From the sequence record HQ630627.1: 64,000 nt of DNA, one strand, 5' to 3'. A program made the position numbers and the translations under genes. Under the pieces are notes generated by a model. That model was not told the origin of the DNA. It did not search any database and saw nothing but the letters and a program-made list of their open reading frames with translations. This stretch comes from Pseudomonas phage PhiPA3. Below, piece after piece: positions 9,937 to 12,709 of the stretch (position 1 is its first letter; each line of letters starts with the position of its first letter).

Positions 9937-10305
9937 TTAGTAACCCTCATTCAACAGATCGGATAATGCTCTAGCTTGAGAAATATCAGTGGAAGCAAAT
10001 ACGTCAGAAAGATAATAATCATGATCTTTTGCATTCTGACGTAATTCATTCATTAGTTGTTTATTGGATACAGCCCAAATTCTCCATAAGTCTTTATAGT
10101 CCTCATACTTAGGATTATACCCATCTAATGGAGGTTTACCTTTCCCTGCTTTCCAATTATTGGAATGTATTCTGTATCCTTTACAGTCTAATTGCCAAGC
10201 TTCCTCAATCGTTCGTCCATCCGGTAGCCGAGCAAACAGGGCAGAGAATCGTTTGTCGCCAACGGAGGAACATTCGTATCCTCCGCGACGCTTCCACCGA
10301 TACAT
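9937..10305 (-). CDS. hypothetical 122-aa protein, compositionally chimeric
   Basis: ATG overlaps stop of polymerase exon 2 (TAATG coupling); 5' half GC-normal, 3' half AT-rich. Confidence 0.5.
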   Translation of the reverse strand: MYRWKRRGGYECSSVGDKRFSALFARLPDGRTIEEAWQLDCKGYRIHSNNWKAGKGKPPLDGYNPKYEDYKDLWRIWAVSNKQLMNELRQNAKDHDYYLSDVFASTDISQARALSDLLNEGY

Positions 10306-10541
10306 TACTTTGGGGGTTGAGTTTCCTTGTGTTTTAGGTAAGCTGCCAGCATGTTATCCAGTTTGGCACCTTTCATGATCTTCTGTGCAATTTCGATACC
10401 GTTGACTCGACCCCCTGTCAGGTTCACACCCACTTCACGACGATCATGTTCAGAGATGTCTTTCATTGCCGAGAACTCCATGACGGTAGTCTCACGAGCA
10501 ATGTTCAGAATCTGACTCACGTTCGGATACGTACTTACAAT
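10305..10541 (-). CDS. family-B-like DNA polymerase, exon 2 (78 codons, carries second half of motif A: IVSTYPNVSQILNIARETT)
   Basis: open frame downstream of group I intron; STYPNVSQILNIARETT matches pol-B motif A region [16 protein letters not shown]; ends after only 78 codons. Confidence 0.6.
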   Translation of the reverse strand: MVSTYPNVSQILNIARETTVMEFSAMKDISEHDRREVGVNLTGGRVNGIEIAQKIMKGAKLDNMLAAYLKHKETQPPK

Positions 10542-10885
10542 CCATACCTTCGATAGAGTTCGTTATGCTCTACCCGCGTTTACACGCTGCTCCAGGCTTT
10601 CCCTGGATGTGGAGACTATATCACCATCCTTCTCTTTCGAGGATCGGATGCTTCCTATTTCCACCCACTTGGATGTACTCCCTTACGGGATAGTCGTTGA
10701 ACGTTCTTCTCAGAGAGAAGCTTCGCTGCGGATTGCCCAATACATGTGTCTTTTACCATACCCAGTGAGTTAGACTGGCCATCTAGTATATCGCTATCTA
10801 GACTTGGTGCACATGTCTCTAAGGATTTCCCCGTCAATTAAAGAAGTTTGCATCAAGTGTTCCAACTTGATGGGACTAATATTTA
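10542..10885 (-). mobile_element. group I intron (ORF-less) in DNA polymerase gene
   Basis: minus-strand RNA has R-like GUUCAACGACUAUCC and S-like GAUAUAGUCUCC elements (P7 GACUAU/AUAGUC); exon ends in U, intron ends GGUAUGG (G); exon stop codon UAA is first intron triplet; splicing gives ADLD|IVSTYP. Confidence 0.7.
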
Positions 10886-12709
10886 ATCCAGATCAGCCAC
10901 GTGCGTAAACAAAAGTGTGTTGTAGTCGGGTAAGTCTTTGACACACTTCAGTCCGTTGGGTCCAGCCATGTACGAAGGCAGGGTAACGATCCAGGAATCG
11001 TGGCCAACAACATAGCTATCAAGATCATGAACCATCTGATCAGAGCTTGAACCAATTACACAGGGTTCAGGCCGCTTGAGATACCAGAAGTGCATGTCGT
11101 CGCACAGACGTTTCGGGTTAGAACTAAAGTTCTTGTAGTCCGAAGATTTCGAGAACAGAGTAATAGACGAAGCCAGGTCATTAATCTTTTCATCGAGTTG
11201 TTCCAGTCGAATGGAGTCGATGATGTTGTAAAGACCGTACCGGACTTTGTGGTTCTTCTGCATCTCAATGTGCCATTCGATACCTCCCAAGTAGTCAGTT
11301 TCAGCGAACTTCAGTTTACCAAAGTTCAGGCGCATCCCCACACCAAACCCAGGATGTACGTTGACACCCCAGACCAGCGAATCAACTTCTTCCCAGTGTT
11401 CTTCTCGTTCGACCTTTTCCTCACGGCGGTACTCGACTTGAACCCTCGGATCTTCCGGATCAATACCTTCTTGTAGCAGCTTCTCCTGAGCTGCGGTATA
11501 AACAGGGACATCGTTGTACGTGACGTCTACCTTATCCTTGCTCGGATCGTTGACCGACCAATATGGGTGGGCACCACTACGTTCAGCGATGGCTTTACCC
11601 ATCTTCTTCATCCAGCTGTTGAATTCCTCTTCAGTCTGAACAGTTTCCTGTTCATCCATGGAGAGTTCTTTCTTCAGGATGGCATCGAGGGCATAACTGG
11701 ATTCTTTACCTTTGGCCAATCGAGTTACACGATACGTGGCCATGGAGTCAATGCACTGGAACGACGCAGGTGCAGTAATCCAATGCCATTGGTCTTCTGG
11801 ACCTTTGGACTTGGTTACACCCGATGCCGTAGTGGTCATCGCTTGGTCTTGACGGTAATGGAAATACCGATAGTTCGGAGGAACTTGAGGATCACTGAAT
11901 ACGTTCTTCGGGTCAATGCCGTAGTTTTCCAGTGTGGTCAAGATTCGACTCATGTCGAAGTCGATATTCCAGAACGCGAAGAAGTCAGGCTTCCACTTGT
12001 GCAAACGACGCATGCAGTTGATGATGATATCAGCAGGCGAATTTACTACCTCAATTTCAATATTGAGATTACGTGCTTTTTTCAGAGTCACCAATTCTGG
12101 AATGCGTTCTAATTCGGCGAAGGTTTCGGCAACTGGGTCATCCAGATCTTTCACCCAATGCTTCAGATATGCCAGATACACGTTTTCCTTGTGTGTAACC
12201 GACATGCAGATAATCTGTCCCTCGTTCTCTTCTTCGTACACGTTGGTCTCGATGTCGCCACCGGCTACCGTGTTACGGGAAATAAGTTCCGGGTATTGCT
12301 CCCGGTAGTCGTTTTTGAGACAGCAGACTGAGCTTACGTCCGAACCGTACAGATAAGGGCTACGGCTCAATTGGCGCATACGTGGGTTAGGACCCATTGA
12401 GTAATCGCCTAACAACTTAGCGATCATACGTGGCATCTCCAGTTGAGTACAGGTGTACTTCTGGAGGTTACGTTCAAATTCGTAATCTTTCTTTTCTTTA
12501 TGATTTTGTCTTCCCTTCTGTGTAATCCAGAAGGGACGTTTGTAGTCTTCAACGACCCGAATACGTGGGATACGACGTTTGTCTTTAAGGTGAATGATTT
12601 CTTTGACTACGTGTGCATCATGCCTACGGCCAGTTTGGTCAGTCACATAAGTGATGTGTTTGGCTTCAATACCAACAACATCTTCTTTTGTAAATTGTAG
12701 GTCGGACAT
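10886..12709 (-). CDS. family-B-like DNA polymerase, exon 1 (3'-5' exonuclease domain to first half of motif A)
   Basis: Exo I GGDIETN, Exo II FAFWNIDFDMSRIL, Exo III YGLYNIIDSIRLEQLDEKI (like T4 YNIIDVESVQAIDKI); ends ...HVADLD. Confidence 0.65.

Follow-up and report, generated by a model that had tools for sequence, protein, structure and literature searches.

Why should the gene for a DNA polymerase stop at an aspartate codon and take up its reading frame again a few hundred nucleotides later? The question is raised by gp085 of Pseudomonas phage PhiPA3, a principal model phage of the nucleus-forming jumbo group. In the 64-kb window analyzed here (a stretch of 64,000 nucleotides from record HQ630627.1), a minus-strand open reading frame (ORF) at 10883-12709 encodes 608 residues, and its product is 100% identical to the protein deposited as 'DNA polymerase [Pseudomonas phage PhiPA3]' (AEH03509.1 / YP_009217165.1, gp085). 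This product covers the N-terminal and 3'-5' exonuclease domains of a polymerase subunit, ends in ...FTHVADLD and is followed at once by TAA. The frame reopens at 10541, exactly 344 nt downstream, with IVSTYPNVSQILNIARETT, and stays open over 78 codons until it meets a stop at 10305. An initial annotation, made from the letters alone, had proposed that a group I intron lies between the two parts and splits a DNA polymerase inside catalytic motif A, and its coordinates for the break and the resumed frame proved correct to the base. The analysis leads to much the same answer: the insert is very probably a group I intron of canonical build, ORF-less, of the phage IA type and predicted to be self-splicing, in the gene for an exonuclease/motif-A subunit. 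As a molecular element, it is unsurprising; phage polymerase genes are well known to harbor group I introns at their catalytic sites.

The identification starts from the covariance-model search that had been proposed as a check. In a scan of the whole window, the Rfam family RF00028 (Intron_gpI) matches at 10590-10895 on the minus strand with 71.7 bits (E=3.2e-16), above the curated gathering score of 50 bits; the match spans the full model (positions 1-253/253), and no other Rfam family in the scan matches the insert. The boundaries are those expected by the initial annotation: the last base of exon 1 is U (10886), the intron opens with UAA (10885-10883) and it closes with G (10542). The UAA is in frame with exon 1 and stops the translation of unspliced RNA. 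The intronless homologue of phage PA1C (647 aa) reads ...SHVADLDIVSTYPNVSQILNIARETTVMEFS... unbroken across the predicted junction, and excision of exactly 10885-10542 would therefore restore a conserved protein. The joined PhiPA3 exons give ...HVADLDIVSTYPNVSQ..., which matches PA1C residue for residue at the join and is in register with at least 40 other loci; every one of the 26 IMG/VR loci and all but one of 17 metagenome loci are uninterrupted there and fit the join, and exon 2 is 80-86% identical to the C-terminus of intronless homologues. The predicted ligated junction is ...GCTGATCTGGAT joined to ATTGTAAGTACG... in DNA and DLPDYNTLLFTHVADLDIVSTYPNVSQILNIAR in peptide, and no alternative pair of splice sites yields the same mRNA.

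Other kinds of interruption can be set against these data: an intein, a programmed read-through or frameshift, a sequencing or assembly artifact, or a mobile insertion that merely resembles a group I core. The insert contains six, eight and five stop codons across its three frames, and stops in every frame exclude an intein or read-through; intein, read-through and frameshift were rejected on this ground. An assembly artifact was rejected on another, since the same architecture occurs in independently sequenced genomes as well as in metagenomes. Together with the full-length covariance-model match (E=3e-16) and the lack of any other Rfam family in the insert, this leaves an interruption that is not a group I intron next to no credence. 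The claim that the intron carries no homing endonuclease was likewise borne out. The only sense-strand ORF of at least 40 aa wholly within it is a 60-aa frame with a TTG start (10655-10837, minus strand), which spans P5-P7.2; it finds no match in Pfam, and a gene there is improbable. Orthologous introns carry HNH_3+NUMOD1 ORFs.

The predicted RNA contains the paired regions of a group I ribozyme (Table 1). P1 has 7 bp, in which exon GGAU (10889-10886) and intron UAA (10885-10883) pair with the internal guide UUAGUCC (10879-10873) across a loop of 3 nt. At the 5' splice site, U10886 stands opposite G10876 as a U·G wobble. The P1 pair that comes first on the intron side covaries among orthologues (U-A, A-U or G-C). 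A minimum free energy (MFE) fold independently recovers P1, P2, the three-armed P5 extension, P6a, P7.1, P7.2, P9, P9.1 and P9.2. The R- and S-like elements that had been noticed in the insert are both present: the first contains J6/7 and the 5' strand of P7, GACUA (10695-10691), and the second contains J8/7 and the 3' strand of P7, UAGUC (10618-10614). P7.1 and P7.2 are the extra hairpins typical of subgroup IA; both occur here, and by inspection both stems are kept complementary with differing sequence in the orthologous introns of HPP-Temi (PP968062.1) and of loci L005 and L058. On the presence of these two hairpins, the label IA2 is plausible.

Table 1. Exons, predicted introns and predicted paired regions in the PhiPA3 window. 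Cmscan denotes the alignment to the Rfam model; fold denotes the MFE fold.
Feature	Position	Strand	Basis or remark
Exon 1, polymerase gene gp085 (608 codons)	10886-12709	-	ORF list; ends with the GAT codon of D608
Exon 2 (78 codons + stop; IVSTYPNVSQ...KETQPPK, stop)	10305-10541	-	Carries the S-x-Y-P part of motif A
Group I intron (predicted), 344 nt, ORF-less	10542-10885	-	Rfam RF00028; PA1C homologue; HPP-Temi identity; covariation
P1	10873-10889	-	Cmscan; MFE fold recovers the hairpin
P2 hairpin (CAUCAAGU / ACUUGAUG)	10851-10872	-	MFE fold; 5/8 pairs with compensatory changes
P3 5' strand 10846-10841; P4 10836-10829 with 10732-10727	within 10727-10846	-	Cmscan, fold
P5 10824-10820 with 10740-10736; extended P5a/b/c arm	10816-10742 (arm)	-	Cmscan, fold
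P6/P6a, 10726-10701	within 10688-10726	-	Cmscan
R-like element GUUCAACGACUAUCC	10702-10688	-	J6/7 + P7 5' strand
P7.1 UCCC-GUAA-GGGA; P7.2 CAUCC-AAGU-GGGUG	10690-10679; 10675-10662	-	Fold; inserted between P7 and P3' relative to the Rfam model
P3 3' strand AGGAAG	10656-10651	-	After P7.1/P7.2
P8, GAAA loop	10650-10625	-	Cmscan, fold
S-like element GAUAUAGUCUCC	10622-10611	-	J8/7 + P7 3' strand
P9	10607-10591	-	Cmscan, fold
P9.1 10587-10576 (GUAA loop); P9.2 10572-10554	within 10542-10587	-	Fold
3' tail ...CGAAGGUAUGG, ending in the terminal G	within 10542-10587	-	Tail conserved in orthologues
Second group I intron (predicted)	52555-54344	-	Rfam 83.1 bits on core 52607-52900; exons 54345-55511 + 52186-52554

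The structure is maintained among relatives. In a MAFFT alignment of seven orthologous introns (548 columns, endonuclease ORFs excised), RNAalifold draws P2, P3, P6, P8, P9, P9.1 and P9.2, with compensatory changes in 36 of 56 pairs. Since RNAalifold cannot draw the P3/P7 pseudoknot, P4 and P7 were added through a hand-drawn structure. In that structure, 94.7% of cells are paired, compared with 33-43% when the partners are slid, and changes on both sides are found in 32 of 55 pairs; none of 500 shuffles attains the observed values on four of five measures. P3 is fully paired (100%, five of six pairs compensatory), as is P7 (GACUA/UAGUC, 100% of cells, with one compensatory change from U-A to C-G). 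P8 and P9 are 94% and 98% paired, with compensatory changes in both, and compensatory pairs make up five of five in P9.2 and three of four in P9.1. P4 is 89% paired; its two apparent mismatches (PhiPA3 and HPP-Temi) are an alignment artifact of a bulged base. The compensatory changes point to selection on RNA structure in this lineage and thus argue for a functional ribozyme. The splice-site bases are constant as well: all eight orthologous copies with readable ends have an exon-final U, and the seven with a readable 3' end have a terminal G and the conserved tail UAACGA...GAAGRUAUCG. The wobble pair in P1, the terminal G, the exact exon join, the Rfam score above threshold and the compensatory changes all bear out the group I assignment that had been made by eye.

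RNAalifold also pairs positions -8 to -5 of exon 1 (AYCU) with AGRU in the intron tail GAAGRUAUCG (alignment columns 1-4/532-535), which correspond in the window to about 10893-10890 and about 10551-10548. Two compensatory variants, C-G and U-A, occur among the seven sequences. This pairing could be chance or a contact that brings both splice sites together.

The protein that the joined exons would encode is a divergent one. Three sequence searches gave nothing of use: a Pfam scan of the whole spliced protein found no polymerase family at E<=1, a profile of the 20-sequence family against all PDB sequences returned chance matches only, and phmmer with the C-terminal 104 residues against the PDB found nothing relevant. 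The polymerase identity was therefore drawn from a fold search, from PHROGs and from alignments to T4 gp43. With an AlphaFold model of the spliced 686-residue protein, confident only for residues 1-510, each of the 50 best Foldseek hits in the PDB is a family B polymerase (E about 2e-8, probability 1.0); among them are E. coli Pol II, Pol epsilon, RB69 gp43 and archaeal PolB. The protein also matches PHROG 3011 'DNA polymerase' (E=2e-238). Across 20 homologues, the exonuclease residues do not vary: D152/E154 in Exo I (DxE), N248/F251/D252 in Exo II (NxxxFD) and Y494/D498 in Exo III (YxxxD). Pfam PF03104 is found only below threshold.

The same 20 homologues share invariant D606, L607, D608, S611, T612, Y613 and P614 around the junction. 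The best BLASTP segment aligns HVADLDIVSTYPNVSQILNIARETTVMEF with T4 gp43 403-431 (E=0.005), so that D608-IV-S-T-Y-P-N matches D408-LT-S-L-Y-P-S. Hhalign places the Exo III and motif A segment collinear with T4 gp43 (overall E only 0.12), and PF00136 is found below threshold at the motif A residues (E=0.049). The assignment of D608 as the catalytic aspartate of motif A (DxxSLYPS; T4 D408), with the intron directly after its codon, is supported by these comparisons. It is coherent over four independent lines and is at the same time the statistically weakest link in the argument. The earlier claim that the split falls inside motif A is therefore upheld on weaker evidence than the intron itself.

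The identification of the product as a DNA polymerase stands for its family B fold and fails for the whole enzyme. In all homologues, the protein ends 78 residues past the junction, and neither motif B (KxxxNSxYG) nor motif C (YGDTDS) occurs in the six frames of the window. Both findings agree with the divergent family B DNA polymerase of phiKZ-like phages, which is made of split subunits (PMC5105663, PMC7824862). Thus, gp085 is no complete polymerase; it is one subunit, N-terminal/exonuclease/motif-A, of a family B enzyme of the phiKZ type that is divergent and split.

By the established group I pathway, the pre-mRNA would fold into P1-P9.2, and free guanosine bound in P7 would attack after U10886, held in the U·G wobble by the guide UUAGUCC. 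The released 3'-OH would then attack after the terminal G (10542). The joining of ...GAT to ATT... would give an mRNA for the 686-residue protein with a continuous motif A (D608-I-V-S-T-Y-P-N). Unspliced RNA would be translated up to the intron-initial UAA and would yield the truncated 608-residue product, as it is now annotated. Nucleus-forming phages keep transcription apart from translation (PMC12908238), and folding and splicing would therefore proceed without ribosomes on the RNA.

The defined end of the unspliced product raises the question of whether splicing is conditional and regulates the supply of polymerase, the truncated exonuclease-only protein having a function of its own. The in-frame UAA at the first intron codon delimits the 608-residue product in just the way this would need, although an immediate stop codon is common in phage group I introns. 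A gp85 peptide has been detected in PhiPA3 proteomics and could stem from either form (PMC10643120), and conditional splicing has been discussed for phage introns (PMC10914365). Nothing in the present analysis points to regulation, however, and the absence of the intron from most relatives means that a conserved regulatory role is not needed. Regulation by conditional splicing is unlikely on balance.

Several observations weigh against an active intron that interrupts motif A. P10, the pairing of the 3' exon with the guide, is weak: by inspection, at most two or three non-adjacent pairs can be drawn, the candidate being AUU with AAU at intron positions 3-5, and it is likewise weak in HPP-Temi. 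Many introns can do without P10. For the RNA as a whole, the fold gives a z-score of only -2.07. On the protein side, the three comparisons that place motif A carry weak statistics, and the AlphaFold model is unreliable for residues 514-686, where motif A is not placeable structurally. Tryptic peptides of exon 2 were not found in the supplementary files of a PhiPA3 proteomics paper (PMC10449902). In phiKZ, moreover, introns predicted in gp56, gp72 and gp179 showed no splicing in long-read transcriptomes (PMC10914365), so that prediction alone has failed before in this phage group.

Taken at their strongest, such observations would make the insert a dead relic that does not splice, with the polymerase working from fragments: the 608-residue gp085, a separate exon 2 peptide and a second subunit encoded elsewhere. 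The enzyme is after all already split naturally into two subunits about 78 residues downstream (PMC5105663), and to the weak P10, the missing exon 2 peptides and the phiKZ precedent may be added the loss of an endonuclease from the gp085 intron (see below). Nevertheless, all core helices are intact and are maintained through compensatory changes among orthologues, and the Rfam score lies above the curated threshold. The first in-frame start in exon 2 is a GTG at V616, the 5' end of the exon having no start codon, and a separately translated peptide would drop the invariant S611, T612, Y613 and P614. A break right after the catalytic aspartate is seen in no homologue without an intervening group I intron. 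A dead relic is thus distinctly improbable, and an intron that is predicted to splice remains the preferred reading.

The window holds a second predicted group I intron (Table 1), which splits a divergent DnaB-like replicative helicase gene (Pfam PF20307; exon 1 matches profile positions 1-239 and exon 2 matches 239-350). When the exons are joined, the peptide ...RNYTTP plus RGITFISPHQL... finds its counterpart in intronless relatives as a single 303-nt piece, 96% identical. The helicase intron shares with the gp085 intron an identical P7 5' strand region, P7 3' strand and P9, as well as the UAA after an exon-final U. It differs in its host gene, in a shorter P5 arm and in a 474-aa HNH_3/NUMOD1/I-HmuI-like endonuclease ORF (52865-54289), whose 3' end runs into P1/P2. 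Judged by these shared segments, the helicase ribozyme is a paralogue of the gp085 intron. PhiPA3 has two recognized putative group I introns in RNA polymerase genes, the gp210 intron in the virion RNA polymerase (vRNAP; PMC11620839) and the gp65-66 intron in the non-virion RNA polymerase (nvRNAP; PMC10643120, PMC10449902); the helicase intron is not one of these two, which are the PhiPA3 introns found in the literature. With both introns of the window counted, PhiPA3 has no fewer than four replication and transcription genes interrupted by introns, those for vRNAP, nvRNAP, DNA polymerase and the DnaB-like helicase.

The gp210 intron is a close parallel within the same phage. It is a putative group I intron directly after conserved catalytic aspartates of an essential polymerase, and its endonuclease is of the same kind (HNH) as in related copies of the gp085 intron. 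It differs in lying in the gene for the virion RNA polymerase beta subunit and in that its endonuclease, gp210, is present, active and mediates interference with phiKZ (Birkholz et al., 2024; PMC11620839). In contrast, the gp085 intron encodes no endonuclease and cannot attack a competitor.

Further afield, group I introns lie in conserved parts of the replicative polymerase genes of Bacillus phages SPO1, SP82 and Bastille (I-HmuI, I-BasI), Pseudomonas phage LUZ24 and cyanophage Pf-WMP3. The polymerases of these phages are believed to belong to family A, whereas the host gene of the gp085 intron encodes a divergent split family B enzyme of a nucleus-forming jumbo phage. Introns of the SPO1/LUZ24/Pf-WMP3 type often carry HNH nicking endonucleases, unlike the ORF-less gp085 copy; the Pf-WMP3 polymerase intron, for instance, belongs to IA2 and has the nicking HNH enzyme I-PfoP3I (PMC3428280). 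The catalytic core of the gp085 intron is common to introns of Bacillus, Staphylococcus, Brochothrix and Vibrio phages. The T4 introns in td, nrdB and nrdD are of subgroup IA2 and share with the gp085 intron P7.1/P7.2, P9.1/P9.2 and an early in-frame stop. They differ in their host genes and in having ORFs in other loops, whereas relatives of the gp085 intron have them in L1 or P7.1/P7.2. A further resemblance to the core (intron positions 151-273) lies in phiKZ, where AF399011.1 65470-65596, adjoining PHIKZ072.1, is 72% identical; the matched place recurs in about 25 phiKZ-like records. In 2002, an intron had been predicted at the PHIKZ072.1 locus, among other places, and long-read transcriptomes showed no splicing there (PMC10914365).

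Among about 50,700 phage records, an orthologous intron was found only in HPP-Temi. It sits at the same site, after the HVADLD codons; the two ribozymes share 82.6% identity along 98% of the length of the PhiPA3 intron, and the P1 guide GUCC and the 3' tail are the same. The HPP-Temi intron differs in carrying a 444-aa HNH_3+NUMOD1 endonuclease ORF in the P1 loop, where PhiPA3 has 3 nt, which brings it to 1722 nt in all. This ORF ends ...DNILVPSSWNT before its stop, and its last codons run through the P1 3' strand and P2. In the frame of exon 1, the PhiPA3 intron begins UAA-AUA-UUA-GUC-CCA-UCA-AGU-UGG-AAC-ACU-UGA (window 10851-10885, minus strand), which reads stop-ILVPSSWNT-stop. The nine codons ILVPSSWNT are thus common to the PhiPA3 intron and the end of the HPP-Temi ORF, and they would have been retained because they coincide with the P1 3' strand and P2. 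They look like the footprint of a lost endonuclease gene, and the PhiPA3 intron is probably the relic of a mobile intron that lost an HNH/NUMOD1 ORF from its P1 loop. The reverse order, in which an ORF invaded an ORF-less intron, is possible. Other copies differ again: L005 has a degenerate ORF remnant of about 90 nt in the P1 loop, and L045 has its ORF in the P7.1/P7.2 region instead of L1. Lacking an endonuclease, the PhiPA3 intron would be unable to home by itself; by destroying the endonuclease target, it would also render its allele not cleavable by the endonucleases of related introns.

The site lies in a stretch that is interrupted repeatedly. In metagenomic homologues whose ORF stops at ...HVADLD, group I introns after the D608 codon are found in L005, L009, L045 and L058 (Rfam at or above the gathering score) and in L057 (48.8 bits), and L056 has a weak Rfam match at this site (27.7 bits, E=4.5e-5). 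Two further sites are used within 36 codons, one after D606 (...HVAD) and one 34 codons upstream, after ...D-x-W-I. Rfam-confirmed introns occupy the upstream site in L010, L011 and L045 and the D606 site in L011, while L006 and L007 have an HNH ORF at the upstream site and no Rfam match at the gathering score. L011 (4699-5231, 5328-7064) and L045 (6157-6490, 6593-7824) have two introns each, with a mini-exon of 32-34 codons between them. A large protein collection supplied 120 cluster representatives, of which 68 continue past motif A; the ORF breaks off at ...HVAD or ...HVADLD in about 23 and at ...D-x-W-I in about 21. About 44 of the 120, or roughly one-third, therefore end at one of the three sites, a rough figure in that an ORF may be truncated without an intron and that cluster representatives do not stand for independent genomes. 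Of 219 records with a polymerase homologue, 215, phiKZ gp082 included, show the motif A region at one place only, with at least 80% of the query covered; the 60 records listed individually are all single pieces, and short ORF-less introns could hide among the others.

These patterns allow a tentative reading in which the motif A stretch of the chimallivirus polymerase is a three-site homing hotspot contested by several HNH introns, and in which the ORF-less PhiPA3 copy is a post-homing relic kept as an immunity allele against the endonucleases of co-infecting HPP-Temi-type relatives. This reading is possible and is held with considerable doubt. If it were true, the gp085 intron would be an immunity allele in the same intron warfare that gp210 wages offensively against phiKZ. 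The empty site in phiKZ gp082 and in most cultured relatives offers a natural setting in which the part of polymerase introns in intron-endonuclease competition can be tested.

For PhiPA3 itself, the finding is of use mainly in two ways: it corrects the annotation of a model phage, and it opens a way into the study of how introns compete at the polymerase locus. In the public annotation, gp085 has 608 residues and ends at the presumed catalytic aspartate, and exon 2, with the rest of motif A, is apparently omitted. The accessions of gp084 (AEH03508.1) and gp085 are consecutive, and the protein collection lacks the GTG-started ORF that spans most of exon 2; from these accessions and an exact-sequence look-up, both exon 2 and the intron appear to be missing. 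A literature search found no description of the gp085 intron, the PhiPA3 genome paper (Monson et al., 2011) being outside its reach. Structure predictions, proteomics databases, antisense or CRISPR targeting and replisome reconstitution built on this annotation use a truncated, probably inactive subunit.

Directly downstream of exon 2 lies gp084, a 122-aa ORF (9937-10305, minus strand) that belongs to PHROG 9995, a group listed as of unknown function, and has no Pfam match. The stop of exon 2 overlaps the start of gp084 (TAATG), which suggests that ribosomes read exon 2, and gp084 is probably translationally coupled to the polymerase subunit. The HPP-Temi record has no intron annotated; its 118-aa CDS 'DNA polymerase' (6082-6435) and a 48-aa 'hypothetical protein' (5978-6124) start within the ribozyme core, and the true exon 2 starts at 6202. 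The gp084 region of HPP-Temi is annotated only as small ORFs at 6505-6615 and 6684-6800, which suggests that its gp084 counterpart is disrupted or mis-called.

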